Shown here piece by piece: positions 1-33,490 of a stretch of DNA of 64,000 nucleotides. Position numbers and translations under genes: made by a program. Location of the stretch: positions 24,295 through 88,294 of the IMG/VR virus record IMGVR_UViG_3300022555_000030; one strand, written 5' to 3'. The notes under the pieces were generated by a model, which had not been told where the DNA came from, searched no databases, and saw only the letters and a list, made by a program, of their open reading frames with translations. Origin of the DNA: a virus. Its lineage: Duplodnaviria > Caudoviricetes. Within the stretch, counting starts at the first letter, position 1; each line of letters starts with the position of its first letter.

Positions 1-137
1 CTGTAGTGAGAAACCTGAACTATTAAAGGGACAACCTTTAGGACAGTATCATTGCCCCGATTGTGGTGCTATGATTATAGCTGGAATAAAACACCCACCT
101 ATGTGTAAAAAATGTATAGATAGAAAACATCCAATGT

Positions 138-497
138 TTGATGAGAGAAATTAAATTTAGGGCATGGGATAAAAAACACAGCAGAATGACTCCTATTATA
201 GCATTAGGTCTTTTATCGAAAGAAGCAGTTGGTGATTCTTGTACTTTGAAATTTAACAAAGATTGTGAGCTTTTACAATATACAGGACTAAAAGACAAGG
301 ATGGTAAAGAGATTTATGATGGGGATATCGTCACACACGGATTCCAAAGCAATCCAACTAAAATTTATTGGGATAATTTCAATGGTAAATGGGTAAGAAC
401 CAGTTACACAGGGATAACTCAAGGTGATATGGAATTAATGGGTAAAGTCATCGGCAACATTTATGAAAATCCAGAATTAGTTGATAAGGAGGAATAG
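138..497 (+). CDS. YopX-family phage protein
   Basis: MREIKFRAWDK...LLQYTGLKDKDGKEIYDGDIV...VIGNIYENPEL, the characteristic YopX signature. Confidence 0.9.
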   Translation: MMREIKFRAWDKKHSRMTPIIALGLLSKEAVGDSCTLKFNKDCELLQYTGLKDKDGKEIYDGDIVTHGFQSNPTKIYWDNFNGKWVRTSYTGITQGDMELMGKVIGNIYENPELVDKEE

Positions 498-499
498 AG

Positions 500-865
500 A
501 TGAAAGTGGAAATAATAATACCAGACGGAAAATATTGTGATGGTTGCCAATTATTTGATAACGGTTCGAGTTATGAATATTCCTGTTGGTGTAATTATAT
601 TGACAAAAGCCTTGAGACAGTATACGATGGCGGTTTTGTTAAGAAAACTCTTAAGCATTCCAAATGTCCAAGTTATGAGGAGTATAGAATGGATAAGTAT
701 TTATTGGAAATAGTAGCAAGGACTATATACGATTGGTTTGGAGACGAAGATACAGAATGGAAAGATGTAGGAGAAGTTACTCAGGATAGATTTACTGATG
801 CCGCAGAGTCAGTTCTTGCTAAAGCCGAGCCATTAATCAGACAGGAAACTGTCAAGGAGGAGTAG
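500..865 (+). CDS. Hypothetical protein; probably two fused cassettes (Cys-rich N-half + helical C-half)
   Basis: Coupled ORF; internal junction-like GAGGAGTATAGAATG at 677-691. Confidence 0.7.
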   Translation: MKVEIIIPDGKYCDGCQLFDNGSSYEYSCWCNYIDKSLETVYDGGFVKKTLKHSKCPSYEEYRMDKYLLEIVARTIYDWFGDEDTEWKDVGEVTQDRFTDAAESVLAKAEPLIRQETVKEE

Positions 866-868
866 AGA

Positions 869-1453
869 ATGATTGAGATTAAATCAAGGTTTACAGGTGA
901 TGTAATTGTTTCAGGAGATTATCAATCAGTCGGGGAATGCCTCGAAAAAAACAGAGGTGCTTGTCTCAGAGGCGCTGATCTCATAGGCGCTAATCTCAGA
1001 GGTGCTAATCTCGGAGGCGCTAATCTCGAAGACGCTAATCTCGAAGACGCTAATCTCGTAGGCGCTTATCTCGGAGGCGCTAATCTCGTAGGCGCTTATC
1101 TCGTAGGTGCTTATCTCGTAGGAGCTGATCTCAGAGACGCTGATCTCAGAGGTGCTGATCTCGTAGGAGCTGATCTCAGAGACGCTGATCTCGGACGCGC
1201 TAATCTCATAGATATAAAAAATTACTCTCAAAATCACAGTATATTTGTGGAATTAATCCACAAACAAAAAGCAGACATATTTACAGAAGCGGAATGGTCT
1301 GCTATTGCACAAATTATGATATATACTCTATGTTGGGGTTCCATACGAAAGCGGTTTGCTAATGCCATCCCTCATGTATTTGAGATATTGGCTCATGCAG
1401 GTTGGAGAGAATATCTTGACCACTGGAATAAATTAGTTAAGAAAGAGGAGTAG
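869..1453 (+). CDS. Pentapeptide repeat protein
   Basis: About 17 A(D/N/Y)LxG/D pentapeptides; 15-nt DNA periodicity. Confidence 0.92.
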
Positions 1454-1456
1454 AGA

Positions 1457-1741
1457 ATGGATAAGATTTTATTGACTGATGAGGAACTAATAAGTATAAC
1501 TGATGAGACTTGCCTGAGACACAACAAAACATGGAATGACATTGAGAAACTTGATGAGTGTAATCTAATTATTGATCTATACGAATCAGCCGCCAAAGCT
1601 CAACATATCAAAACAGCTAAGGCGATATTTGATGAGTTAAGAAAAGTCAGGCAGGTACGGTTAACTGATAAATATTTACCAGAAATCTTTTTTGATGCGC
1701 CCAAATTTAATAGGATAGAACAGTCATTTTTTGGAGGGTAA
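1457..1741 (+). CDS. Hypothetical protein, ILL/KAQ paralog family
   Basis: MDKILLTDEE...AKAQHIKTAKAIFDEL, shared with ORFs at 2230, 2647, 3709 and 4787. Confidence 0.75.
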   Translation: MDKILLTDEELISITDETCLRHNKTWNDIEKLDECNLIIDLYESAAKAQHIKTAKAIFDELRKVRQVRLTDKYLPEIFFDAPKFNRIEQSFFGG

Positions 1742-1746
1742 ATAGT

Positions 1747-1932
1747 ATGTGCGAATGTATAGAATTGGTAACTAAGGCCGGATACGTAGGTAAATCTATT
1801 TTAGGCCACCAACCGAATTATCTTCTATACCCCTTAGAGTTCAAAAATGGGAAAGTAAAAGTTAAGAAAGACCCATACTTATTCATTACATATTGCCCTG
1901 TTTGTGGTAAACAGTTATTGGAGGATAAATAG
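1747..1932 (+). CDS. Small Cys-containing (Zn-ribbon-like) protein
   Basis: MCEC...YCPVCGKQL; SD GGAGG upstream. Confidence 0.75.
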   Translation: MCECIELVTKAGYVGKSILGHQPNYLLYPLEFKNGKVKVKKDPYLFITYCPVCGKQLLEDK

Positions 1933-2229
1933 ATGAGCAAGTGGCGACCTGAGGGATGGCCAGAACCACGTTGTGTTGATTGTCCAGACAAAGCTGAAGA
2001 TCAATATGGACTACTTTGTAATCTGTCATGCGGTGTGGAATCACTGGATAAAATGTATGAAGCTGGTGCTGATGCCATGCTAGCGGCATTGAGGAAAGAG
2101 GGCTATGGCAGAATGGTAACAAAAACAATACCGCCATATCCTCAGAGAAACTTTGCGGATGGAGAATTTACACCAGGTTGTGGCCATGAAAGCCATGTAA
2201 CATATTTTGAAAAGTTGGAGGGGAAATAG
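1933..2229 (+). CDS. Hypothetical protein
   Basis: Coupled ORF; WRPEGW...YEAGADAML; ends LEGK. Confidence 0.75.
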   Translation: MSKWRPEGWPEPRCVDCPDKAEDQYGLLCNLSCGVESLDKMYEAGADAMLAALRKEGYGRMVTKTIPPYPQRNFADGEFTPGCGHESHVTYFEKLEGK

Positions 2230-2448
2230 ATGGTGATATTGCTGGATAAGAAAGAATTTAGGAAAGTACTAAATGAATGCTCAGTATGGGAAGGAAAATA
2301 CGACCCCTTGCTCAAAGCTCAAGCTCTCAAGGTACTGGATGAGCTGGGGAAACCGTGTCCACACGTTCATAAGATTTTGCCAAATAGACCGAAAAGAGCT
2401 TGTGAAGAATGCATGGCGGAAATTAGCGCGGCATTGGAGGGTAAATAG
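2230..2448 (+). CDS. Hypothetical protein, KPCPH...CxxC paralog family
   Basis: LLKAQALKVLDELGKPCPH...KRACEECMAEI...LEGK. Confidence 0.8.
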   Translation: MVILLDKKEFRKVLNECSVWEGKYDPLLKAQALKVLDELGKPCPHVHKILPNRPKRACEECMAEISAALEGK

Positions 2449-2449
2449 T

Positions 2450-2647
2450 ATGGAGACGAGAGAGGAAATAGCAAAACATTTACTCGATTTAGTTACAAGA
2501 TTCGAGTCAGATTTAGTTAGACATTTGTCGCCCAAAGTGCAGAAATCTATTGATTATCAGAAATTCACCTGGAAGACAATTTCAGAGTACCAAAAATCTT
2601 TTTGGCTAGAAGAAGCTGATAAGGTAATTAAGTTGAGAGATAAATAA
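2450..2647 (+). CDS. Hypothetical protein (65 aa; start re-assigned from 2273)
   Basis: ATG directly after the TTGGAGGGTAAATAGT junction; METREEIAK... Confidence 0.7.
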   Translation: METREEIAKHLLDLVTRFESDLVRHLSPKVQKSIDYQKFTWKTISEYQKSFWLEEADKVIKLRDK

Positions 2648-3027
2648 TGGATAAAATTCCTTGGTATGGCTTAATGCAAGATTCTATTCATGAGCAAAAA
2701 GGAAAACTGATTAAGTGTACTCCAATAAGGAGAAATAAAATGTCTAATCTAATACTTCAAAAGCAAATAGCTGTAATGTTTACTGCTTTGTATTGGGGAT
2801 TGTCAGAGAATGCAGCCCTAAATTTTTTTGATGATGCTTCTAAAACTCAAAAGCAAATGTTTTTGGACTATGCTGATAAAGCTATTAAAGAAGTGCGACA
2901 AGAACTTATTAAGGCAATATTTGAGGAATTGTCTAAACCATGTCCTCATCCAGTTAATAAAGGTTATCCAAAACGAGAATGTACTGTGTGTTGCAATAAA
3001 TTAAGAAAAGAATTGGAGGGTAAGTAA
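2647..3027 (+). CDS. Hypothetical protein carrying the KPCPH...CxxC module
   Basis: KAIFEELSKPCPH...KRECTVCC...LEGK; possible internal start at about 2740 (AAGGAGAAATAAAATG). Confidence 0.75.
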   Translation: MDKIPWYGLMQDSIHEQKGKLIKCTPIRRNKMSNLILQKQIAVMFTALYWGLSENAALNFFDDASKTQKQMFLDYADKAIKEVRQELIKAIFEELSKPCPHPVNKGYPKRECTVCCNKLRKELEGK

Positions 3028-3236
3028 TGGAGATACTGCAAACTATATATGAGTTTACTAATAAAGAATGCGAAACAACCTGCGGTTTATACCATGTAAA
3101 ATTAGATAGTGGTGCAACACATTACCTATTACGTAATAATGATTCTGTGGCTGTAATAGCACATTACTTAGGGCATTCAGCAACAGAGTGTTTAAGTTTA
3201 ATCATAGACGATGTAAAAAAAAGAATTCTTCGATAG
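3027..3236 (+). CDS. Hypothetical protein
   Basis: TAATG overlap with upstream stop; SD present. Confidence 0.65.
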   Translation: MEILQTIYEFTNKECETTCGLYHVKLDSGATHYLLRNNDSVAVIAHYLGHSATECLSLIIDDVKKRILR

Positions 3237-3250
3237 GTTGGAGGGTAAGA

Positions 3251-3343
3251 ATGCTTACAGACGATGATATAATTTTGTTTGCTATATGCTTCATCAGCAT
3301 ATTGATAGTTTTGATTATTATAGCTTGTAGAGTTGGAGGGTAA
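3251..3343 (+). CDS. 30-aa single-TM membrane peptide (not in ORF track)
   Basis: MLTDDDIILFAICFISILIVLIIIACRVGG; flanked on both sides by the junction motif. Confidence 0.6.
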   Translation: MLTDDDIILFAICFISILIVLIIIACRVGG

Positions 3344-3348
3344 ATAGA

Positions 3349-3558
3349 ATGGAATTAATAAAAGTGCCAATGACTCATAAGGAACTATTAACTCTACCTA
3401 TAGAATTACAGAGAAAAATTATAGAGCGGCAAGTTGCGGAATTACAATCACTTAAAACAGGTGCATTATGTATAACCTGTTCAGAGATTATAAATTGTAA
3501 AATGCGTGATGCAGTTCAATATTGTGGTGGATTTAAACGAAAAAAGGAGGGTAAATAG
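3349..3558 (+). CDS. Hypothetical protein with CxxC
   Basis: Junction-coupled; ends KKEGK. Confidence 0.7.
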   Translation: MELIKVPMTHKELLTLPIELQRKIIERQVAELQSLKTGALCITCSEIINCKMRDAVQYCGGFKRKKEGK

Positions 3559-3708
3559 ATGAATAAAACACCAAAGAATTTACCCATATTGCATATCCAT
3601 GAATGGGAATATCCTAAAACTAGACACCATAAACTCATGCGTAAATGTAAATCATGTCCTGTGATTGAAAAATTAAATGATAAAGCATTAAAGATTAAGG
3701 GTAAATAA
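3559..3708 (+). CDS. 49-aa hypothetical protein (not in ORF track)
   Basis: MNKTPKNLPILHIHEWEY...RKCKSC...IKGK; TAGATG coupling. Confidence 0.6.
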   Translation: MNKTPKNLPILHIHEWEYPKTRHHKLMRKCKSCPVIEKLNDKALKIKGK

Positions 3709-3939
3709 ATGATGGGGATATTGTTGAGTGATGAGGAATATGAAATAGCCCATAAAGCTGAGGGACATTCAAGAACATTTATAAATTCGTGGACAGTACA
3801 ACCATACTTAAAAGCCCAAGCCTTGAAGTTGTTGGATGAGTTGAATAAGCCTTGCCCACATGAAACATACGCAAATATAAAAAGAGAATGTGAGGAGTGC
3901 ATGACAGAAATCCGAAAGGAGATTGAAGATGTGGGCTAA
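3709..3939 (+). CDS. Hypothetical protein, KPCPH...CxxC paralog family
   Basis: GILLSDEE...LKAQALKLLDELNKPCPH...KRECEECMTEIRKEIE. Confidence 0.8.
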   Translation: MMGILLSDEEYEIAHKAEGHSRTFINSWTVQPYLKAQALKLLDELNKPCPHETYANIKRECEECMTEIRKEIEDVG

Positions 3940-4069
3940 ATTGTTATGCAAGCTGGGTATCCACTCTTACGGAGAGTGGGAAACAGTCAAAGTAGCAGAT
4001 GTCCTGTATTGGCGAGCCTGCAGGCGTGGATGCGGTTGTAGAGAAGTAATTATGCTGGAGGGTAAATAG
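3929..4069 (+). CDS. 46-aa Cys/His protein, DUF1660-like (not in ORF track)
   Basis: MWAKLLCKLGIHSYGEW...RACRRGC...LEGK. Confidence 0.65.
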   Translation: MWAKLLCKLGIHSYGEWETVKVADVLYWRACRRGCGCREVIMLEGK

Positions 4070-4070
4070 A

Positions 4071-4307
4071 ATGGAAAATGTAACAGTAATTTGTGACAGA
4101 TGCAAGAAAAAAGTTCATGGCACAGAAAGCCCAGGTACAACTGGTGGGTTTTATCGCCGTGCAGCATGGTTTATGTACATGGAAGATGGTGAAAATATAA
4201 TCTGTGATGAGTGTATGTTTGCGAATCCAGAATATACAAAGATTTTCGGTAAACATGAAGCCAAGATTGGGAACCTTAATCATCATTTCAAGACATTTGA
4301 AGGGTAA
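4071..4307 (+). CDS. Zn-finger-like hypothetical protein
   Basis: CDRC...ICDEC; junction-coupled. Confidence 0.7.
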   Translation: MENVTVICDRCKKKVHGTESPGTTGGFYRRAAWFMYMEDGENIICDECMFANPEYTKIFGKHEAKIGNLNHHFKTFEG

Positions 4308-4311
4308 ATAG

Positions 4312-4467
4312 ATGAATCAACGAACAGGTAAAGAGTGTAAAAAGATAAACTGTAAATACTATAAATACTATTCTAATTGGTTTAGTAATTTAGGACAAAG
4401 AGAACTTGAAATTTGTATGAATTGCCGTAACTCTCATTTATCTCAATATGTTAAGGAGTTGAAATAA
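4312..4467 (+). CDS. 51-aa Cys-rich protein (not in ORF track)
   Basis: MNQRTGKECKKINC...CMNC; follows GAAGGGTAAATAGATG. Confidence 0.6.
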   Translation: MNQRTGKECKKINCKYYKYYSNWFSNLGQRELEICMNCRNSHLSQYVKELK

Positions 4468-4468
4468 C

Positions 4469-4786
4469 ATGTTTGAAAACCATATAAATGCTGGAAACAG
4501 GAGAGTAAAAGTGGAAGATTTTGATAAATTAAAAGCACAAAAGGATGAGATTGTATTACGGCAAATGGCAGATACGTGCCGTCTGGACTGGCTGGAAAAA
4601 CAGGACGGATGCGGTTTAATCAGTGACGATGCTGGAAGATGGGCGATGAACAAATGCGGATATCAGAACTACCTTAATCCTGATAAAACCATCAGCTATG
4701 CTAAATCTTCCGTTTGGGTGGGAGCTCACGAATGGAAACCCTCAATCAGGGCGGCTATTGATTACGCTATGAGGGAGGGTAAATAG
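4469..4786 (+). CDS. Hypothetical protein
   Basis: ADTCRLDWLE...SIRAAIDYAMREGK; a phage small-protein pattern. Confidence 0.7.
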   Translation: MFENHINAGNRRVKVEDFDKLKAQKDEIVLRQMADTCRLDWLEKQDGCGLISDDAGRWAMNKCGYQNYLNPDKTISYAKSSVWVGAHEWKPSIRAAIDYAMREGK

Positions 4787-5023
4787 ATGGGGATATTACT
4801 TAATAGCAAAGAGCGTCTTAAAATTATAGGTGAGTCCAGAATCGGAAAGGGTGTTGACAATGTAATGAAAGCCCAAGCCATCAAGGTACTGAATGAGCTG
4901 GATAAGCCGTGCCAATATACATATACTTCTGCTGGGCATGCAGTAGAATACAGGCTGAAAAAGTATTGCCCTTATTGTATGACAGAAATTAGAAAGGAGA
5001 TTGAGGGAATAAATAATGGATAA
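4787..5023 (+). CDS. Hypothetical protein, KPC...CxxC paralog family
   Basis: GILLNSKE...MKAQAIKVLNELDKPC...CPYCMTEIRKEIEG. Confidence 0.8.
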   Translation: MGILLNSKERLKIIGESRIGKGVDNVMKAQAIKVLNELDKPCQYTYTSAGHAVEYRLKKYCPYCMTEIRKEIEGINNG

Positions 5024-5183
5024 TAATAAAAGTAATATATCATGCGATGAATGTAAGAAACTAATGAATTGTCCTCGGGATTATGTGCCAATTGATTTGC
5101 GCAAAGAAATGGCAAAAGAAATGGGCTGTTCTGACTATAAATTTGCCAGTGAAAGAAAATTTGCCAGTAAAAGAAAAAAATAA
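5016..5183 (+). CDS. 55-aa Cys-containing protein, last ORF of the array (not in ORF track)
   Basis: MDNNKSNISCDECKKLMNCP...; 3' end has a duplicated AATTTGCCAGTNAAAGAAAA. Confidence 0.55.
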   Translation: MDNNKSNISCDECKKLMNCPRDYVPIDLRKEMAKEMGCSDYKFASERKFASKRKK

Positions 5184-5277
5184 ATAACCCATAAAATCAA
5201 CCGCGCTGACTACCTGTATATCTTATATACGAATAATACACATACTTTATAAAAGCACAATTTCTCTTATAAAGTTT

Positions 5278-5304
5278 TTGCTATTTATTATTATAATATA
5301 TAAT
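5278..5304 (+). promoter_or_regulatory. Promoter TTGCTA-N15-TATAAT
   Basis: Upstream of ORF 5349; one of 16 near-identical sites. Confidence 0.75.
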
Positions 5305-5348
5305 ACATATATATAAATTAATAAATTATATATATAGAGGATAATAAT

Positions 5349-5549
5349 ATGGATACAGAAAATTATATTCAAAGAATGCAAGAAATTAGAGATGGAATTG
5401 AATTTAAAATCGGCAAAAAATTAACCGCCAAGCAATGGGGAGCCATTTCATACCAAGCATATGAAGATGGCCATTATGCTGGTATGTCAGAAATAGTAAG
5501 CAAAGCAAAAGACTTAACTGAATTAGTAATAGATTTGTTAAAAGAATAA
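5349..5549 (+). CDS. Hypothetical protein
   Basis: SD AGAGGA; first gene after the promoter. Confidence 0.7.
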   Translation: MDTENYIQRMQEIRDGIEFKIGKKLTAKQWGAISYQAYEDGHYAGMSEIVSKAKDLTELVIDLLKE

Positions 5550-5742
5550 TAATATGGATGAGGTATTTATATGCCATATGAAGTTAAGACTTATGATTGT
5601 GTATACATGACCCCAGAAGAAATGGGAATAATATTATATTTTATAGGTAATTATAATAAAAAGATATTATTAAATGCATTATTCGGGGATGAATTATTTA
5701 TAATGCTAGCATATAAAAATTAAATAAATAAGGAGCAGATAA

Positions 5743-5937
5743 ATGGCTAATAAACCCCAAAAAAGTAATGAAAAATATAATGTAATGATTGATGAATATA
5801 AGGGAAGTCCTATATTGCAAATATGGTCTGAAGAGAATTCACAATTCCCGGTAATATCATTTGGGATTAAAAGGGCTAGAGCAATACATAGTTGTATGCC
5901 TGATATAGAGAAATTTATTCATGATAATGAGGCATAA
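5743..5937 (+). CDS. Small phage protein (EYKG..IL...ISFG..KA..I family; possibly PC4-like nucleic-acid binder)
   Basis: Motif pattern; SD AAGGAG. Confidence 0.6.
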   Translation: MANKPQKSNEKYNVMIDEYKGSPILQIWSEENSQFPVISFGIKRARAIHSCMPDIEKFIHDNEA

Positions 5938-5941
5938 ATAA

Positions 5942-6163
5942 ATGTCCAGAACTAACCGGGATATTAATCATAATATGTGTAAAAGATTACGCCGGGAAGG
6001 AGAATATATGACTATAGACTGTTTAGAATGCCGGGGATGTCCTACACATACTACATTTCTTAGGAAAGAAGCAAATACAACTGCCAGAGCAAAGCAAAAT
6101 AATGCATTCAAAGCACAAACAGATGATCCAGAAATACCTATCTTTAAATCAGGAAAGGAATGA
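5942..6163 (+). CDS. Basic hypothetical protein
   Basis: ORF track; MSRT start; CxxCxxC. Confidence 0.6.
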   Translation: MSRTNRDINHNMCKRLRREGEYMTIDCLECRGCPTHTTFLRKEANTTARAKQNNAFKAQTDDPEIPIFKSGKE

Positions 6164-9620: not shown

Positions 9621-10739
9621 GTGACTATGATGTTAGGGGCAGATCCAGAATTTGAAGTTCAAACAAAAGGTGGTATATTCAAGAATGCTAGTGGTTTCTT
9701 CTCCACTGATACTTCTGAGAAACTTGGCTGCGATGGGTGCAGTAACACAGGAGAACTCCGCCCAGCTCCAGGTGATGGCAAATTTGTTACTAATGAAATC
9801 AAAGGACTATTAACTCGTGCTTTCCAACGTATTGGTGCTAACAATAGATTAATCGGTGGTTGTGGTGTTACTGTCTCCCTCGGTGGGCATATTCATCTTT
9901 CTGATGTAGCTCGTGACTCTACTATCCTGGCAATGCTTGATAAGTTTATTGCTATTCCTCTTAGACAAGTGTCTAATACTCGTATCCGCGATAATCATGG
10001 TTATGGTAGGCTTAGTGAATACAGAAGTCAACCCTGGGGATGGGAATATCGTGCTCCATGTTCTTGGATTATCCATCCTGCCATTGTTAAAGGGGTATTA
10101 TTAACTGCTGAGTACATTGCAAAAGCCAAGACGGCTAACAGGACATTATTAGAATTTGATGATCTCTATAATTTTGTTGCTGAGACATCTCAAGAAGATA
10201 TGCTCACTGTTAAACGTTTCCAGCACATTGTCTATTCCTTAATACAGAATAACCGTAAAATTGAATCAATGGAAGTCTTTAATGGTTGGGGCTTTATGGA
10301 CAATGTAGCAACCACGGTAATTCAAAGCAAGATATTCAGATTTGAATTCTCAAGTGATTACTTAATGGATCAAATTAATAGAGAGTTAGATTATACACGG
10401 ATTAATCTGTCCCATATTCTCCCTGTTGAAACAATCCGAATATGCGGTGCGTCTGATATTCGTGCTAACTTTGAACCGGCATTCTTTGTGCCTGTACGAC
10501 TTCGCCCAGTGTTTCCTCTTTATGTGCAACATACAAAAGTATTGACTTGGGACTTGGATACTATTGGTATCACTCGAAAGTTAAGAGAAGTATATTCACC
10601 CGTAAAGATTGCTTCTATGCTCAATGAACTTCGACGTTATGCAAAAAGGAATTATTTTAAACTCAGTGAGAATAATACCTGCACAATTGATAGAGAAGCA
10701 ATAACAACTAAAAGAATAATTGAAGGAGTAACTGTATAA
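9621..10739 (+). CDS. phiEco32-like COOH-NH2 ligase (type 2) with C-terminal extension
   Basis: LGADPEF, LGCDG, GELRPAP, LGGHIH and GWEYR motifs; GTG start with SD GGAGG. Confidence 0.85.
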   Translation: MTMMLGADPEFEVQTKGGIFKNASGFFSTDTSEKLGCDGCSNTGELRPAPGDGKFVTNEIKGLLTRAFQRIGANNRLIGGCGVTVSLGGHIHLSDVARDSTILAMLDKFIAIPLRQVSNTRIRDNHGYGRLSEYRSQPWGWEYRAPCSWIIHPAIVKGVLLTAEYIAKAKTANRTLLEFDDLYNFVAETSQEDMLTVKRFQHIVYSLIQNNRKIESMEVFNGWGFMDNVATTVIQSKIFRFEFSSDYLMDQINRELDYTRINLSHILPVETIRICGASDIRANFEPAFFVPVRLRPVFPLYVQHTKVLTWDLDTIGITRKLREVYSPVKIASMLNELRRYAKRNYFKLSENNTCTIDREAITTKRIIEGVTV

Positions 10740-11515
10740 TGTGTGGAATCTCTGGGTACATCTCAAATAAGAATAATCCCCTGGGATGGGATAAAATCCA
10801 GAAGTTATGGCTTAGTATTGAAAACCGTGGCAAAGATGCAAGCGGTGTTGCATGGAGTAATGGTGACTATTATATTAATATCTTAAAGGGGAATATGAGT
10901 ATATCTGAATTCATAAAATCTCCTGAAGTATTAGCTCATAGAGAGTCTATAGAGAACTCAAAAATGGTTATGCTTCACACTCGCGCCGCAACGCATGGAT
11001 CCCCTACAGACAATAATAATAATCATCCTATATTCAATGGTCGTGGCGTCTTAATTCATAATGGTATTGTAAAGACTAAAAAACAATACAAAGGGAAAGG
11101 AATTTGTGACTCTGAACAATTAATGCTTGCTATACAGAATGAAGGTTGGGAGAAGTCAATTGTAGGTACATCCGGTATGATGGCTATTGCATACTTTGAT
11201 ACTTTAAATAAAAGTTTGTATTTATACCGGGATACATCTCCGATGTTCTATACTGATGATAAAGAATTAATTGTGTATAACTCATATTTTTATCCTTTGA
11301 AGTCGAATATATCTGACAATGTAATAGAAAAGAAACCATATTCAATCCTTCGAATTAAAGAGGATACTCTTGAAAAGAAAGTTATCATGACATTCGTCGC
11401 TCCCAAGACTCAGTCATTCATTCCAAAGCATAATAAGACTTATGCTCCTGCTTATGGTGCTGCGCATGATTGGAAACAAACTTATGGATATGGTATGTAC
11501 GATGGTTGCTATTAG
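10739..11515 (+). CDS. Class II (Ntn) glutamine amidotransferase
   Basis: MCGI N-terminal Cys; RGKDASG; HTRAATHG; HPI; HNG; DSE. Confidence 0.9.
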   Translation: MCGISGYISNKNNPLGWDKIQKLWLSIENRGKDASGVAWSNGDYYINILKGNMSISEFIKSPEVLAHRESIENSKMVMLHTRAATHGSPTDNNNNHPIFNGRGVLIHNGIVKTKKQYKGKGICDSEQLMLAIQNEGWEKSIVGTSGMMAIAYFDTLNKSLYLYRDTSPMFYTDDKELIVYNSYFYPLKSNISDNVIEKKPYSILRIKEDTLEKKVIMTFVAPKTQSFIPKHNKTYAPAYGAAHDWKQTYGYGMYDGCY

Positions 11516-16921: not shown

Positions 16922-17518
16922 TTATACTATTTTATCAGCAATACCATAATCTATAGCTTCTTCCGCCCCCATCCAATATTCCTTATTTATATCTTTTAAT
17001 ATTTGCTTACTACTTTTAGTTGCACCACATTCTATTAAATTATCAATTAATAATGATTTATTTTTATTAATTTCTTTAGATTGCAATGCAATATCATCTG
17101 AATCACCCTCAGCATTGCCTGACGGCAAATGTAACATTATTCTAGTATTCTTATATACATATCTATGTCCTTTTGTACCTGCAGCTAATATGAGCACTGC
17201 CATAGATTGGCAACTTCTACCATATGTATGTATCTCTGAACCAATTTTCGATACTTCTCTCATAGTATCAAATAATGTGAAACCACTAGATACATAACCG
17301 CCAGGGGAATCAATATATAATTTTATAGGTGCATGTTCTTGAGCATCAAGTGCAAGAATCATATCTTGAGTATACATAGAACTATATGCATCTGAACGAA
17401 GCATTACAGGTGCAATTATTCCATAAAGAAATAATGATCTATTCTTTCTGAGTAATAGTTCATGAGGTCCCATTAATTCATTCTTTTTAATATTATCAGG
17501 CCTTTGAAAATATTCCAT
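16922..17518 (-). CDS. clpP: ClpP-like serine protease (S14), copy 1
   Basis: LYIDSPGG, QSMA (Ser), IMLHLPSG (His), AEEAIDYGIADKI. Confidence 0.92.
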   Translation of the reverse strand: MEYFQRPDNIKKNELMGPHELLLRKNRSLFLYGIIAPVMLRSDAYSSMYTQDMILALDAQEHAPIKLYIDSPGGYVSSGFTLFDTMREVSKIGSEIHTYGRSCQSMAVLILAAGTKGHRYVYKNTRIMLHLPSGNAEGDSDDIALQSKEINKNKSLLIDNLIECGATKSSKQILKDINKEYWMGAEEAIDYGIADKIV

Positions 17519-26808: not shown

Positions 26809-27393
26809 TTACTCCTCTATCCTATCAATTAAACCTAATTCTAATGCTTCTTTACAATCATAATATTGTGGGGTGCTTTCATCAAGAATTGATGCCCAAA
26901 ATTCTTTTGTATGATGAATAGGATCTTCTGAAGTATTCTCAATTGCAATAATTTCAGAAAAATCTACTTGGAACTTATCCATAATCTTTTTCTGTGAATC
27001 AATATCTTTCTTATCACCAATAGAAAATCCTGATGCTCCATGGCACATAAGTACATCATATTTACCCATTATTCGTTCATCACAACATTGTAAAATCATA
27101 AAAGCTATAGACATTGCATAGCCTTGAACATTTCCAATAAATCTAATACCCTGTTTTTGAAATTCTTTCATTGCACGAATAATAGCTAAACCACCATATA
27201 CTTCACCACCAGGAGATGAAATATTCAATTTGATATCTTTATGCCCATAATATATAGCATATTTAACTTGTGCTCTAAAGTATGATATCTCATTCCCAAA
27301 TATTTCATCACATATTTCAACTTCACCATTTTTACCAGAGATATAATCTTTAAATTCAAATTTAAGCTTTACATCTAATTCAAGATCTTTCAA
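26809..27393 (-). CDS. clpP: ClpP-like serine protease (S14), copy 2
   Basis: ISSPGGEVYGG, AMSIA (Ser), LMCHG (His), EALELGLID; probable TTG start with SD AAGGAG. Confidence 0.85.
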   Translation of the reverse strand: MKDLELDVKLKFEFKDYISGKNGEVEICDEIFGNEISYFRAQVKYAIYYGHKDIKLNISSPGGEVYGGLAIIRAMKEFQKQGIRFIGNVQGYAMSIAFMILQCCDERIMGKYDVLMCHGASGFSIGDKKDIDSQKKIMDKFQVDFSEIIAIENTSEDPIHHTKEFWASILDESTPQYYDCKEALELGLIDRIEE

Positions 27394-27448: not shown

Positions 27449-30343
27449 CTAAATACTACATTTTCCCCCATCACATTCACTAAGATGCCCATCATTAGTG
27501 GCTTTTAATGGTGCATCTCTACTACCATCACGATATACTGTAATTCCTTTACAACCTAAAGAATGAGCAAGAAGATATGCATCATTAATATGCTCTAAAG
27601 TTGCATTATTATGAAGATTAATAGTCTTACTTACTGCATTATCTGTATATTGCTGAAATGCTGCTTGCATATTAATATGCTGTTCAATTGTTAATTCATG
27701 AGAAGTGACTACAGCCATTTCCTGTTCTTCAGTATATTTTTTACTAAGATCCAATTTTACTCCATTCAGCACAGTCTTTGTATATTCTCTAGCAAATAAT
27801 GGCTCAATACTACTAGATGTATTAGCTAATACAGAGAGGGTACCGGTCGGGGCGATTGTGGTGAGGGTTGCATTACGTCTTTTTAATTGCTCTAATGCCC
27901 CTAAACCTTTTTCTTTGCCTAAATCTCTTGAAGTCATATGAGCAACTTCTCTAATATTCATCATAAGCCTTTTAGCAAGTTTTATGGCTTCTTCTGAGTC
28001 ATATCTAATACCCATTTCGATAAGAGCATCAGCCCAACCCATAATTCCTAAACCTACTTTTCGAGTCATTTTTGTTTTACGTTCAATTTTAATAGTAGGG
28101 AACTTATTTACATCAATAACATCATCAAGAAATCTAGCTGCAATAGCTACCACTACTGCTAATTTATCCCAATCAATTTTATTCCCTTTTATAAATTTTG
28201 CTATATCAATAGACCCTAAATTACAACTTTCATATGGTAAAAGAGGTTGCTCTCCACATTGCATTGTATTTATAAATATCTGTTCTTTCCCATTTTCAAA
28301 ACCGCCTATATAATAATTATGGAAATCATCGACTGTACCATTATAAACATCTTCATATCCATCTTCCGTAACATAAATTACTTTATGATTTGAATATACA
28401 AATAATTCTTTTGGAATACCTTTACGTTGTTCAGCAAGTTTATTATTCCAGCATTTATGGCTACAATAAGAAACTTCTCTTTTTGCCCATTTTACTGAAA
28501 AATTAATGCCACATCTCTCACATTTTTTCTCAACCATTACAATATTATTATTCAAATAACATCTTAAATCTGTTTTATTTTTACATTCTTCTAACTTTTG
28601 TTGAGATCGTTCTTTAATAGCTAAATCAAGATTTTCTAGAGCGTTATTAAGACCATTCCTATCTTTATGATGAACAATTGATTTATAGCCTATTTTTCCA
28701 AAACCATAATTAGCAATTAATCTATGCTCTAAATTAAAAGTTTTTTCATTGCTATTTTTTATCCATATATAATCTTGAGAAATGCTATTTGAATGCGCTA
28801 AAATTTCGTTAAATTTAGCTTTTTTCTTAATTAAAATATTTAAACTATCTCCATTTTGTAATTTCTCTGCTTCTTTTTTAGTTCCATCTGAAAGAATAAA
28901 TTTATGATTTCCAGTAACTCTTAAGCTATTACCATCATCTAAAGTAATCTTATATATTTTTTGTGAATATCCTGTAACTCTTGGATTTCTTAATATTCTA
29001 ATTTTTGTTTTTCCATTATCACTACAATATACAGGAACATCTTTTCCTTCTTCTGCTAATTGTTTAATTGATATTGCACCTCTCCCATCTGCAATTGCAA
29101 TTAAAGTATCTCCCGATAAACAAGGGTTAGTTCCTTCAATATTCCCAAGCCATGGAGTAGGATTTTTAGCATTAATAGAGTCTAAGAATATAAGTCCGGG
29201 TTCTCCAGTCTTCCAAGCTTGGGTGCATATAGCCTCCCATAATCTTTCAGCTTTAATATATATCTTTTCTTTAGTCCTAGGATTAATTAAAGGATATCCA
29301 TTCCTTTGCTTTACTGCTTTTAAGAAATTATCAGTAATTCCTACACTCATATTAAAATTACTAAATTGAGAAATATCTTCCTTACATCTTATAAAATTAA
29401 AAATATCTGGATGAGAACAATGAAGAATACCCATATTTGCTCCACGGCGAACACCACCTTGCTTAACTACATCAGTAGCAGTATCAAATACTCTCATAAA
29501 TGATACTGGGCCAGAAGCAACACCGGATGTACTTGCGACCATACTATTTGCTGGTCTTATATTAGAGAATAAAAGCCCGGTACCCCCTCCACTTTTATGT
29601 ATAAGCGCTGTTTGTTTCACTTGTTCAAAAATATTAGATAAATTATCCTCCATCGGGAGAAGAAAACAATTATGAACAAAAATATTATTTGCAGCAAAAT
29701 TATGATATTTATCTACTGATAAATCATATACATCTTCTCTACCGCAATATTCTATAGATACGACTTTATGATTATAATCATAATTAAGAGGCATTATTGA
29801 TTGACCTACAGATAATTCATCTACTCTACTAAATTTACCATTTCTATGCATAATAAGATGATCTTTTGTAGCTTTTAATTCACTCCCGTCATCAAATTTA
29901 ATTAAGAATACTTCTTCATTTTTTCTTGTTAATCTAGGATTAAAAGCCTTTCCTATACCTAACTCTGAAAAAGATGCAGCACAAAAAACATCAAATTTTT
30001 CATTAGGTTTATCTTTATATTTTTCTGCTAATTCTTTTATTGTAAAATCACCAGCACAAGTTCTAATAATAGTATTCCCAGAAAGACAAGCACTCAATTG
30101 TCCTAATTCTTTTCCTGAATTCATAAGTGTAGGACTATTAGGTAAAAATTCAAGAGTATCCATAATACTCATAAATTTATCATACCAATAATTTTTTAAT
30201 TCATTTGTTTTCTCTGCATTTGATATATGTTTTGCAACACGCTCAAGCATTTGGTCTGGTGTCTCTATTACAACCCCTTTTTTATCTTTTAATAGATATC
30301 TTGCTTCCAAAATAGGAATAGCATTATTACTCCATTTAGCCAT
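27449..30343 (-). CDS. nrdJ: Class II (B12-dependent) ribonucleotide reductase with two inteins
   Basis: FLPNSPTL, QLSA/CF, RRGANMG, GEPG, NP/CGE, SCNLGS, TIAPTG, SKTIN; C-terminal Cys pair. Confidence 0.93.
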   Translation of the reverse strand: MAKWSNNAIPILEARYLLKDKKGVVIETPDQMLERVAKHISNAEKTNELKNYWYDKFMSIMDTLEFLPNSPTLMNSGKELGQLSACLSGNTIIRTCAGDFTIKELAEKYKDKPNEKFDVFCAASFSELGIGKAFNPRLTRKNEEVFLIKFDDGSELKATKDHLIMHRNGKFSRVDELSVGQSIMPLNYDYNHKVVSIEYCGREDVYDLSVDKYHNFAANNIFVHNCFLLPMEDNLSNIFEQVKQTALIHKSGGGTGLLFSNIRPANSMVASTSGVASGPVSFMRVFDTATDVVKQGGVRRGANMGILHCSHPDIFNFIRCKEDISQFSNFNMSVGITDNFLKAVKQRNGYPLINPRTKEKIYIKAERLWEAICTQAWKTGEPGLIFLDSINAKNPTPWLGNIEGTNPCLSGDTLIAIADGRGAISIKQLAEEGKDVPVYCSDNGKTKIRILRNPRVTGYSQKIYKITLDDGNSLRVTGNHKFILSDGTKKEAEKLQNGDSLNILIKKKAKFNEILAHSNSISQDYIWIKNSNEKTFNLEHRLIANYGFGKIGYKSIVHHKDRNGLNNALENLDLAIKERSQQKLEECKNKTDLRCYLNNNIVMVEKKCERCGINFSVKWAKREVSYCSHKCWNNKLAEQRKGIPKELFVYSNHKVIYVTEDGYEDVYNGTVDDFHNYYIGGFENGKEQIFINTMQCGEQPLLPYESCNLGSIDIAKFIKGNKIDWDKLAVVVAIAARFLDDVIDVNKFPTIKIERKTKMTRKVGLGIMGWADALIEMGIRYDSEEAIKLAKRLMMNIREVAHMTSRDLGKEKGLGALEQLKRRNATLTTIAPTGTLSVLANTSSSIEPLFAREYTKTVLNGVKLDLSKKYTEEQEMAVVTSHELTIEQHINMQAAFQQYTDNAVSKTINLHNNATLEHINDAYLLAHSLGCKGITVYRDGSRDAPLKATNDGHLSECDGGKCSI
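28259..29122 (-). mobile_element. Intein (288 aa) at NP/CGE with HNH domain and C-terminal Gln
   Basis: CLSGDT...TGNH...HRL...VHHKD.N..NN..ENL...VYNGTVDDFHNY...INTMQ followed by Cys+1. Confidence 0.9.
29669..30088 (-). mobile_element. Mini-intein (140 aa) at QLSA/CF
   Basis: CLSGNT...TKDH...VYDLSV...FVHN followed by Cys+1. Confidence 0.92.
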
Positions 30344-30883: not shown

Positions 30884-31657
30884 TTATACTCCTATACTAT
30901 GACAAAGTGAAAAATATCCACACCATTTTTCTCCGCACCACCAACCGCAAGGATTTGGAGGGAATATCCCTGAATTAATTTGCTTATCAATATTAATAAT
31001 AAGATTTTTAAACCATTCAATATCATTAATAGTCTTAGATACATGAACTAATTGTATTTCAGGTACCTTCTTCTTTACTGCTACATGGAATGTGAATTCA
31101 CGTTTTCCATTTAATAATGCATATGAATAAGGTTGTAGTTCTTTATTAGCATCATCTTGTGACATTGAACGACTTTTTAATTTATGATCTGCTGTTTCTC
31201 CTAATAATTCTAAATCAATAAACCCCATAAAATGAATATCGCCTATATTAACATCCCTTCTTTGTTCTACTGCCAATGGACGTATCATAGGTGCAATCTT
31301 AGAATGATATACCTTTAATGCATTTATAGTTTCATCTTTAAGTTCACCGGGGTCTTTATCTTCCCAATTAACTTTTTCTTCTATAATATCATTAAAGTCT
31401 TCATCATCTTTTACTGCTTTAGTATTATTATCCCATGATGTTGAGAATGCATCTAACAAATCATTAGCAAGTAAATCATCCCCTGTTCTAATTTTATTTT
31501 CAAAATTAGCTTTTAATGCTTCATGATAAGATGACCCTTGCACAAGTGCGCCTGATGGTCTAATCTTTAACCCTTTAATATAACGAAATTCCCATTGTCG
31601 AGGACAATGCAACATAGTCCCTATTTGTGAATTACTTATATACTCTGGTCTTCCCAT
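30884..31657 (-). CDS. PD-(D/E)XK exonuclease (RecB/Cas4-like)
   Basis: SNSQI...CPRQW...GSSYHE...GFIDL...DHK...C-terminal Cys cluster. Confidence 0.85.
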   Translation of the reverse strand: MGRPEYISNSQIGTMLHCPRQWEFRYIKGLKIRPSGALVQGSSYHEALKANFENKIRTGDDLLANDLLDAFSTSWDNNTKAVKDDEDFNDIIEEKVNWEDKDPGELKDETINALKVYHSKIAPMIRPLAVEQRRDVNIGDIHFMGFIDLELLGETADHKLKSRSMSQDDANKELQPYSYALLNGKREFTFHVAVKKKVPEIQLVHVSKTINDIEWFKNLIINIDKQINSGIFPPNPCGWWCGEKWCGYFSLCHSIGV

Positions 31658-31957: not shown

Positions 31958-32496
31958 TATTTTGAACCATCTCTTATTATTACCCCGGCTTCTATTAGAA
32001 GATCATATCCAGTAATACCAACTTGTTTATAAATAACAGGTTCTCCTTTTAAAATAACTTCTTTAATGCCGGCATTAATAATAAGTTTAGCACATTCCCT
32101 ACAGGGCATAATTTGAGAATTAATATATATTGCTGAATTATCAATTTTTACACCATTTCTTGCTGCAAAGACTATTGCATTAGCTTCTGCGTGAGTAGCA
32201 GAACAGTATTCTAATCCTTCCCCGGATTTATAACCCATCCTTTGTCGTGGACATTCAAATTTCGGTTTATATACACTATGAATAAAATCGTTTAAAGTCT
32301 TTAATTTGGCCCATTCCCCTCTATCATTACGCCATTCACAATGCATTATCCCAGATGGTGGCCCATTATATCCTGTACTTAATATCCTTCTATTATTAAC
32401 TATTATACATCCAAGGTTTCGTGATAAACAGTGAGACTTTTTAGATACTTCATCTGCTATATTTAAAAAATATTTATCCCAAGTTAAGTTGTCCAT
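31957..32496 (-). CDS. dCMP deaminase
   Basis: STGYNG, HAEANAI, PCRECAK. Confidence 0.92.
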   Translation of the reverse strand: MDNLTWDKYFLNIADEVSKKSHCLSRNLGCIIVNNRRILSTGYNGPPSGIMHCEWRNDRGEWAKLKTLNDFIHSVYKPKFECPRQRMGYKSGEGLEYCSATHAEANAIVFAARNGVKIDNSAIYINSQIMPCRECAKLIINAGIKEVILKGEPVIYKQVGITGYDLLIEAGVIIRDGSK

Positions 32497-33490
32497 CTAC
32501 TATTCCTTCTTCTTTATTTACTTTCTCAAGTTTTGCTACTTCACCACGTAATGCTGCCCGTAATTTATCACAAATTTCTGTATTGCCTGTAAGTGCTTCT
32601 CGTAATTTTAATTTCCCATGAATTTTTTCACCAAATAAATAATATGATGCTCTATCATGAGGAATAATATTATTTTCAAGGCATATTTCTATTAACCCGC
32701 CAATAGAATCTATCATACCACCTTCATAAATAAAAGGCAATTCACAACTTTGGAATTGTTTACCACTAACTTTATCTTTTTCAAGAGTAATTCTTTGAGT
32801 AAATCCAATCTTTTTAGCATTATCATCTTTAATTGCTGAACCTCTTGATATAAACATCATTAAAGATGCAAAATCTTCTTGAGCTTTACCGCCTGGAATA
32901 GACTTACTTGCAAATCTTCCTACACCTTCTCTAATATGATTTAATAATACTAATACTGAATTATGATTCTTTTGTTGTGCAAGTCTTATCCCTCTAGTAT
33001 TACATTTAGCTATTTCAGTACCATATGATACATTCTCCATAGATGTATCAATAACCGTAGGAATAATAGCATCAAGACTATCCATAACAATAAGGTCTAC
33101 TTCATTATCAATAGCTTTATGAACATAATCCCATGCTTGTTCCCCATAATCTGGAATTAATATAGGAAGATCAGTAACATCCACACCAACAGTAGCACAC
33201 CAATCGGGTTCAAAAGTCTTATCAATACAAACATATAATATTTTCTTACCAAGTTTTTGAACCATAGCAAATAATTTATAACAAAGAAATGTTTTGCCTA
33301 CTGATCCTTCCCCATATATTAAAGTGAATCTGCCATAAGGTAATCCGCCATTTGTTAAATCATCTAGTAAATCAATACCAAAAGGAATTTTTTCTTTCTT
33401 TAATTTTTTATCATTACCAGTAGTTAATATCATACCTTTAATTTTCTTTTCTGATAATCCTTTAATTACATCATCCGCCATTGTCCCCAT
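32474..33490 (-). CDS. recA: RecA-like recombinase
   Basis: GEGSVGKT, VMDSL, NHIR, PGGKA. Confidence 0.9.
   Translation of the reverse strand: MGTMADDVIKGLSEKKIKGMILTTGNDKKLKKEKIPFGIDLLDDLTNGGLPYGRFTLIYGEGSVGKTFLCYKLFAMVQKLGKKILYVCIDKTFEPDWCATVGVDVTDLPILIPDYGEQAWDYVHKAIDNEVDLIVMDSLDAIIPTVIDTSMENVSYGTEIAKCNTRGIRLAQQKNHNSVLVLLNHIREGVGRFASKSIPGGKAQEDFASLMMFISRGSAIKDDNAKKIGFTQRITLEKDKVSGKQFQSCELPFIYEGGMIDSIGGLIEICLENNIIPHDRASYYLFGEKIHGKLKLREALTGNTEICDKLRAALRGEVAKLEKVNKEEGIVDGQLNLG

Follow-up and report, generated by a model that had tools for sequence, protein, structure and literature searches.

The window analysed here is a stretch of 64,000 nucleotides from the Caudoviricetes record IMGVR_UViG_3300022555_000030 (positions 24,295 to 88,294), and near its left end lies an array of small genes whose boundaries carry a conserved junction sequence. 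The window has a G+C content (GC) of 31.5% and is a piece of a large lytic-type phage genome. In the original prediction, made from the letters of the window alone, the array (138-5183) was described as about 24 micro-genes; the abutting micro-gene array is indeed present, while the number of open reading frames (ORFs) comes to 20. The array is the 3' portion of a longer series of small early genes. This series begins upstream of the window and spans at least 10 kb, as seen in contig L064, where about 25 further small genes of the same operon-like run fill the 10 kb directly upstream. A second contig, L065, was considered as an upstream variant and rejected, being identical to L064 with different gene calls.

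The array and its junction sequence

An exact 13-mer, GGAGGGTAAATAG, occurs six times in the array (1733, 2436, 3335, 3546, 4057 and 4774), and three further copies with one mismatch lie at 1920, 2217 and 4299, all on the plus strand and all at the kind of site foreseen by the original prediction. Each copy stands at an ORF boundary and provides a Shine-Dalgarno sequence (SD) and a stop, followed after 0-1 nt by ATG. The nine copies compare with 0.09 expected from shuffles of the 64 kb, none of the 100 shuffles reaching nine, and no further copy exists in the 64-kb window outside 1733-4786, which agrees with the claim that the 13-mer is confined to this region. A related form, GGAGGGTAA, has eight copies in the window, every one within the array.

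The upstream ORFs are closed by the 13-mer in two different frames, with endings of either ..EGK-TAG or ..GG/..EG-TAA; the motif is thus kept whichever of these frames is used, as predicted, and the constraint acts on the DNA or RNA and not on a peptide. A role of ..EGK as a C-terminal peptide signal was rejected because the motif persists in the second frame. Read-through or recoding of TAG was likewise rejected as the cause of the TAG-rich junctions: TAG ends seven other genes, and the window contains no tRNA.

Two types of junction can be distinguished. The type II form reads (TT)GGAGGGTAAATAG(N0-1)ATG, and the looser forms GGAGGGTAAG.. and TAAGGGTAAATAA raise the number of type II boundaries to 12. 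The first three boundaries of the array carry a type I junction, (A)GGAGGAGTAGAGAATG, of the form AAGGAGGAGTAGAGAATG. The single, near-universal junction of the original prediction therefore holds for the type II boundaries and not for the first three. In 12 of the 19 junctions GGAGG stands 8-9 nt ahead of the ATG. The downstream SD lies within the end of the upstream gene, and stop and start overlap or are a few nt apart, a layout that suggests translational coupling of neighbours. The junction is a purine-rich direct repeat, and no inverted repeats were found at the junctions. Promoter-like sites in window 1-6000 number 23 against 26.9 expected, none of them at a junction; terminator-like sites number one against 3.1 expected, and that one is on the opposite strand. 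An Rfam search of the array gave a single sub-threshold chance match, and no RNA family or structure was found.

The motif is distinct from the ordinary ribosome sites of this phage. GGAGG precedes 12/19 array genes and 4/71 other window genes (p = 2e-7), and TAG ends 9/19 and 7/71, respectively (p = 6e-4). The junctions of the array hold 10.0 bits of information, compared with 6.7 bits for equal-sized samples of other genes (maximum 9.3 in 1000); the remaining 71 window genes have AGGAG-like sites with variable AT-rich spacers. Among the ~25 small genes of the upstream 10 kb (L064) there are no copies of the motif. The possibility that the motif is simply a preferred SD, equally common at all gene starts, is contradicted by these counts. 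In IMG/VR, the 16-mer GGAGGGTAAATAGATG is found in 54 contigs, a scrambled-spacer control in 60 and a TAA variant in at least 112; since the counts are no higher than those of control 16-mers, the motif is not a universally favoured ribosome site.

In three of the 54 IMG/VR contigs (43-61% GC) the next gene boundary has a second copy of the motif, a hint that junctions of this kind can also spread locally in other phages. These adjacent copies, in unrelated IMG/VR phages, lie at L051 4836-5031, L003 7339-7873 and L043 3763-4021; L051 also shows duplication of the gene ends and starts next to the junctions (..AEGK stop, MPR..).

The array proteins are ORFans except for a YopX protein and a pentapeptide-repeat protein. 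Pfam and PHROGs searches of the cargo gave nothing beyond YopX, pentapeptide repeats and one PHROG of unknown function, and a search of the phage database returned only short YopX matches. The cargo had been predicted to consist of unrelated proteins, and this stands for most genes; one paralogue family, however, has four clear members and a weak fifth (5/20 array genes), with hidden Markov model E-values of 1e-18 to 1e-35 for the four and 3e-4 for the gene at 1457-1741. No relatives of this family were found in IMG/VR or in GTDB genomes, and one distant contig (L062) was found at JGI. An AlphaFold model of the family predicts three helices and a Cys knuckle (predicted local distance difference test score, pLDDT, 81), for which Foldseek returned no match in the PDB.

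Mosaic blocks and alternative neighbours among relatives

The sequencing runs that contain the window stretch are freshwater or lake metagenomes, possibly the very samples from which the window came. A profile of the paralogue family retrieved 22 metagenome proteins, whose contigs expose further lineages besides that of the window (lineage A). Lineage B (L061, L066-L070) has Trans_reg_C and Thy1 genes downstream of the array, and lineage C (L058) has methyltransferase, ERCC4 and other genes on the opposite strand. Lineage D (L071/72) has 34% GC; lineage E (L073/74) has 41% GC and, with an integrase and a helix-turn-helix (HTH) repressor, is a temperate phage; lineage F (L075) has 46% GC. One more relative, contig L063, bears no lineage letter. 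The sequence (T)TGGAGGGTAAATAG(N)ATG stands between genes in all of these, L063 included, and most such genes have no DNA similarity to the window. The same short sequence is thus found between otherwise unrelated genes of different phages, in at least six lake-phage lineages of 31-46% GC (34-46% for L058, L071/72, L073/74 and L075).

Two of these relatives deserve separate mention. In L073 (1446-3226), which encodes a tyrosine integrase and the HTH repressor, members of the paralogue family occur together with GGAGGGTAAATAG junctions. In L058 (940-1060), the last junction of lineage C, a TGA-stop variant at the end of the array, precedes an 8-codon remnant ORF similar to the beginning of an L066 gene; a terminator-like hairpin comes next.

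The arrays of lineages A and B have a common skeleton but are diverged, with 31% protein identity for YopX and 68% for the pentapeptide protein. Within this diverged background a few genes are near-identical: the 98-aa gene (96.6%), the 78-aa gene (98.3%) and the transplanted 49-, 76- and 46-aa genes (99-100%). The A and B copies differ at 0-10 positions, and the substitution patterns are too few to judge selection. In ungapped views, the identity on the right side of a module reaches the junction ATG and is gone by the next codon, and on the left side it begins at the first bases of the motif.

The ends of the homology blocks concentrate at the junctions, in line with the expectation that breakpoints would fall inside the motif. 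Of 17 distinct block ends, nine lie in junction zones, which make up 13% of the region (p = 9e-5); two lie just outside these zones (474 and 4761), one at a fossil junction, three at the KAQALKVLDEL box of the paralogues, and two (1486 and 4484) 15-30 nt inside a gene. In an adjacency analysis, 12 of 13 variable joints bear the junction motif. The fossil junction lies within the 121-aa gene, where a TAG has become TAT, which indicates that two former cassettes have fused in frame; A/B homology stops just past it in alignments with L066 and L063. The fossil is also present in the 148-aa gene of lineage B. Outside the junctions, crossovers are seen at conserved first codons and within genes of the paralogue family (2314, 3811 and 4911). 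The family is itself mosaic, with N-terminal, central and C-terminal segments recombining among metagenome homologues at the conserved central box.

Gene order differs among relatives and is constant within lineage A in the assemblies read; an identical order in relatives would have refuted the original prediction, and none of the three refuting conditions named there holds. The 78-aa gene has right neighbours of three clusters, namely a 51-aa gene in the window and L068 (78->51), a 49-aa gene in L067 and L069 (78->49), and a mosaic family gene in either an 89-aa form (78->89; L061, L070 and, from gene tables, contigs qb1gPlmm and 7lZnmO5o) or an 86-aa form (78->86; L066). Four right neighbours are known for the pentapeptide gene and two each for the 98-aa and 105-aa genes. 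The order is also permuted: lineage A has the 121-aa gene followed by the pentapeptide gene, and lineage B the pentapeptide gene followed by a 148-aa gene with the same 5' half as the 121-aa gene.

The 78->49 joint occurs in L067 (assembled with MEGAHIT) and L069 (from a scaffold assembly), that is, with different assemblers and in different samples. In L067, lineage-B sequence extends as far as the 78-aa gene ends, where it gives way to the lineage-A genes 49-76-46-78-51, continuing into the 105-aa gene at 99.5% identity; L069 has lineage-B sequence to the same point and then the lineage-A start of the 49-aa gene. At this joint the two parents share only AGGGTAAATAGATG, so that the crossover interval is 14 nt and lies within the motif. 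In L067 (2167-3156) the 49-76-46 genes are flanked by a B-type and an A-type copy of the 78-aa gene, which are 97% identical to each other. A deletion between these two copies would yield the arrangement of L068.

Table 1. Coordinates of the array, its junctions, the paralogue family and candidate recombination genes in the window
Feature	Position	Strand	Remarks
Array of 20 abutting small ORFs	138..5183	+	30-194 aa, gaps -11 to +14 nt; from ORF list and junction table
Type I junction GGAGGAATAGAGATG, YopX gene / 121-aa gene	488..502	+	Block common with lineage B begins ~474
Fossil type I junction in 121-aa gene	677..706	+	90% identical to live 1445-1474 (family D11); TAG -> TAT; breakpoint at 706
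Type I junction ahead of pentapeptide-repeat gene	856..871	+	Family D14; block start at 851
Type I junction behind pentapeptide-repeat gene	1445..1459	+	Four different genes next in four contig kinds (F02 right neighbours: F05, F19, F29, F32)
Type II junction, exact 13-mer	1733..1749	+	Upstream ORF ends TAA (..FFGG*)
Type II junction, one mismatch	1920..1935	+	Left end of 98-aa module common with lineage B; block 1909-2232, 96% identity
Type II junction, one mismatch	2217..2232	+	Right end of 98-aa module; lineage B homology ceases at ATG
Type II junction, exact	2436..2452	+	Family D4: 19 nt identical to 1731-1749
Type II variant GGAGGGTAAGTAATG	3015..3029	+	From junction table
Type II variant GGAGGGTAAGAATG	3240..3253	+	Within 14-nt spacer preceding 30-aa membrane-peptide ORF
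Type II junction, exact	3335..3351	+	Upstream ORF ends TAA (..VGG*)
Type II junction, exact	3546..3561	+	Left end of 49-76-46-78 block transplanted into lineage B (L067, L069)
Degenerate type II junction TAAGGGTAAATAAATG	3696..3711	+	Family D2
Type II junction, exact	4057..4073	+	Left end of 78-aa module; 98% identity to the lineage B copy
Type II junction, one mismatch (GAAGGG..)	4299..4314	+	Right end of 78-aa module; three alternative clusters next, one of them two mosaic genes
Type II junction, exact	4774..4789	+	Right end of 105-aa module; two alternative right neighbours
Paralogue family member	2230..2448	+	MGILL..KAQALKVLDEL.KPC..CxxC..EIRKELEGK
Further paralogue family members	2647-3027 (C-terminal part), 3709-3939, 4787-5023; weak 1457-1741	+	Alignments A2, A3
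PD-(D/E)XK nuclease	30884..31657	-	Pfam PDDEXK_1, E = 9e-14; candidate end-processing enzyme
RecA-family recombinase	32474..33490	-	Pfam RecA, E = 2.8e-34; candidate catalyst of exchanges

Probable cassette exchange at the junction and its alternatives

Our analysis suggests that the junction probably does two things at once: it couples the translation of neighbouring genes and doubles as a short-homology crossover site for the exchange of cassettes. The array would be a polycistronic block of phage early micro-genes, presumably read as one transcript, in which the last 4-5 codons of a gene, its stop and the next start are packed into one compact junction. This junction sets a full GGAGG SD 8-9 nt ahead of the next ATG, and in two of the three frames it closes the upstream ORF, by either TAA or TAG. 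The 13-22 nt common to unrelated genes and to several co-occurring lineages would then offer a crossover point, probably used during co-infection, at which single genes or small groups could be swapped, gained, lost, duplicated or rearranged in register, with a working stop, ribosome site and start retained each time. Because a two-frame stop, a strong ribosome site and a start are supplied, nearly every crossover in the junction gives an expressed, intact gene pair, which would account for the survival of joints at this place. Exchange appears to occur wherever about 14-30 nt are shared, the junction being simply the commonest such stretch. Candidate catalysts are the RecA and nuclease of the phage, host functions, or template switching during replication. 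As stated in the original prediction, the window encodes both RecA and a PD-(D/E)XK nuclease, each matched by Pfam, and no site-specific recombinase: no integrase or resolvase domain was present in the ~50 window ORFs scanned.

The proposal builds on what is observed of the junction, namely its anatomy, its restriction to a sub-array and its presence across lineages, and on the mosaic features of the array, which include the permutation and the duplication. The block ends, the alternative neighbours and the 14-nt joint support the predicted exchange of units by microhomology recombination.

Several points weigh against this proposal. The relatives are all short contigs from mixed-community metagenomes, and several of the variant arrangements are known from gene tables alone. 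Lineage A is present in many lake and freshwater assemblies and has an identical array order in every arrangement shown (look-ups of 22-23 contigs each, the queried proteins being indexed in 41-62 blocks), the only difference seen being the copy number of the pentapeptide repeat; exchange must therefore be rare, and the array is not an active shuffling machine. The block end at 4484 and the variable joint F04->F08 lack the motif. Crossovers at other short shared stretches, such as the KAQALKVLDEL box, imply generic short-homology recombination that is not specific to the motif. The stretches of exact identity, 14-22 nt, are shorter than what efficient pairing is reported to need at the least, namely 31-34 bp for E. 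coli RecA and 23-27 bp for Red-beta (PMC3945230). Finally, selection for intact genes puts surviving joints at gene boundaries under any model.

This last point is the core of an alternative in which the motif is a strong ribosome site for translational coupling only, while joints are made at random by illegitimate recombination and those at boundaries survive selection. A perfect GGAGG, correctly spaced from the ATG, and the accompanying stop would be expected of such a site, and the rest of the genome favours a similar AGGAG + ATAAATAA layout. The stable order of lineage A and the three IMG/VR phages with the same junction at two adjacent boundaries are also compatible with it. Random joints, however, would differ from one another, whereas the joints of several lineages have the same 13-16-mer, including the unusual TAG and the G after GGAGG. 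Nor would a generally useful ribosome site be missing from the ~25 small early genes that adjoin the array in this phage or be no more frequent in IMG/VR than its scrambled control. The confinement of the 78->49 joint to the shared 14 nt speaks for homology, and crossovers at conserved intragenic stretches are not explained by selection at boundaries. We consider this alternative unlikely.

A second possibility is that the motif is an mRNA operator, at which a phage translational repressor or endoribonuclease would shut off the whole block jointly, in the manner of T4 RegA/RegB. T4 RegB cuts within the GGAG of early-gene ribosome sites, and the motif is confined to what would be one co-transcribed block and is conserved beyond the needs of an SD. 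Such an operator would be compatible with cassette exchange at the junction, yet taken alone it leaves the block boundaries and the alternative neighbours unexplained, and the motif is common to lineages with very different genomes, one of them temperate. With no candidate regulator identified and no RNA family or structure in the Rfam search, an operator seems improbable.

The junction could also be the conserved 3' end (..ELEGK stop) and start (MGILL) of one paralogue family expanding by tandem duplication, since four to five array genes end in ..EIRKELEGK and begin with MGILL; the duplicated gene ends around the motif in L051 point the same way. The family, however, takes in only one gene in four, and at least 11 junction-bearing genes have no similarity to it (E > 0.3). 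The motif also persists in a different frame (..FFGG, ..VGG, ..FEG), and upstream family members in L064 lack it, so that this explanation is very unlikely. Errors of metagenome assembly, in which contigs would jump at repeats between co-occurring phages, are hardly credible as the source of the apparent shuffling: although the origin of the relatives and the 240-320 nt of near-identical A/B genes could mislead an assembler, the joints share just 14-24 nt, far below the final k-mer sizes, 78->49 comes from two assemblers and 78->89 is recurrent, and L067 could not be produced by a simple jump in the shared 78-aa gene.

Known systems and neighbouring genes

The original prediction had likened the array to the shuffling of genes flanked by promoter-early stem-loops (PeSLs) in T4-type phages. 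PeSL cassettes lie in the hyperplastic regions of those genomes (Arbiol et al. 2010, PMC2839356; Comeau et al. 2014, PMC4122927). The likeness extends to a short repeated expression signal between ORFan early genes, to indels and replacements between relatives that end at the signal, and to a signal that travels with the gene so that recombinants stay expressed. It does not extend to the contents of the repeat. PeSLs are intergenic, ~100 bp long and transcriptional (a sigma-70 promoter and a stem-loop terminator), whereas the junction here is 13-22 nt long and translational (SD, stops and start), overlaps the upstream coding end and shows no promoter or terminator signal. In addition, PeSL mini-circles have been demonstrated physically, while circles excised from the array of the window would be hypothetical.

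The comparison with an integron survives as an analogy only. Like integron cassettes, the units of the array are promoterless single genes in a one-directional order, gained and lost as units. In contrast to integrons, the window has no IntI-type recombinase and no attC-like hairpin, exchange here would be homology-based, and each unit carries the ribosome site of the next gene and not a recombination site. The array is thus neither a PeSL system nor an integron.

In its function, the array appears closest to the modular shuffling at PeSLs and to the boundary-sequence hypothesis for lambdoid phages, in which Susskind and Botstein and Clark et al. attributed mosaicism to short conserved boundary ('linker') sequences (as cited in PMC3029335). 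In both the lambdoid case and the present one, homologous recombination at short gene-boundary sequences would join unrelated modules; here, the 78->49 joint falls inside shared sequence and block ends fall at the junction ATG. The array differs from the lambdoid linkers in that one defined sequence stands at the majority of its joints and is met again in lineages of 31-46% GC. In most phages such boundary sequences cannot be found at the mosaic joints (PMC3029335), and a study of 90 lactococcal 936 phages found no motif either (PMC4759559). The relaxed phage recombination of De Paepe et al. (2014, PMC3945230) is similar in its high-identity mosaics flanked by short prior similarity and in the presence of phage recombination genes; it differs in that the identity shared here is under the reported minima and that the recombinase, in the part of the genome seen, is RecA-type and not Rad52-type.

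Two views of how mosaic joints arise in phages have long been opposed: homologous exchange at short conserved boundary sequences, and illegitimate recombination at random with selection acting afterwards. As a rule no boundary sequence is found at the joints; here a 13-16-nt sequence stands at most joints of the array, and one natural joint is narrowed to 14 nt. The array thus offers a clear example from nature of genes being shuffled at short boundary sequences that are conserved, and a concrete, testable system for the origin of mosaic joints. It suggests that translation-coupling junctions, besides the promoter/terminator cassettes of T4-type phages, can serve as swap points for small early genes. 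Small early phage genes as a class include host-takeover and anti-defence functions.

A wider interpretation, which we hold to be doubtful, is that the junction is a universal adaptor (ribosome site, two-frame stop and start) kept for evolvability across a lake-phage community with differing hosts and lifestyles (31-46% GC, lytic and temperate). It would then give access to a common pool of plug-in micro-genes as an integrase-free, translation-level counterpart of the integron, possibly with dedicated short-homology recombination functions and circular intermediates.

Beyond the array, from ~14.6 kb on, the minus strand encodes PolIII-alpha, DnaB, primase, RecA, the PD-(D/E)XK nuclease, an intein-bearing ribonucleotide reductase, Thy1, portal and tail tube proteins. 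The large subunit of the reductase (27449-30343) is split by an intein with an HNH endonuclease domain. Two ClpP-family protease genes lie at 16922-17518 and 26809-27393, and a phiEco32-like COOH-NH2 ligase gene, with a glutamine amidotransferase gene directly after it, at 9621-11515.

Within the array, the pentapeptide-repeat gene (869-1453) has a 15-nt tandem period with 16 overlapping 120-nt copies, and the length of its protein differs between contigs (window, 194 aa; L057, 179 aa; lineage B, 159 aa). Contigs of the phage of the window are mostly short (most blocks <10 kb). The end of the array is followed by a very AT-rich spacer of 165 nt (5184-5348), and two of the three contigs with DNA stop at or just before it, L055 at window position 5213 and L057 at 5165.

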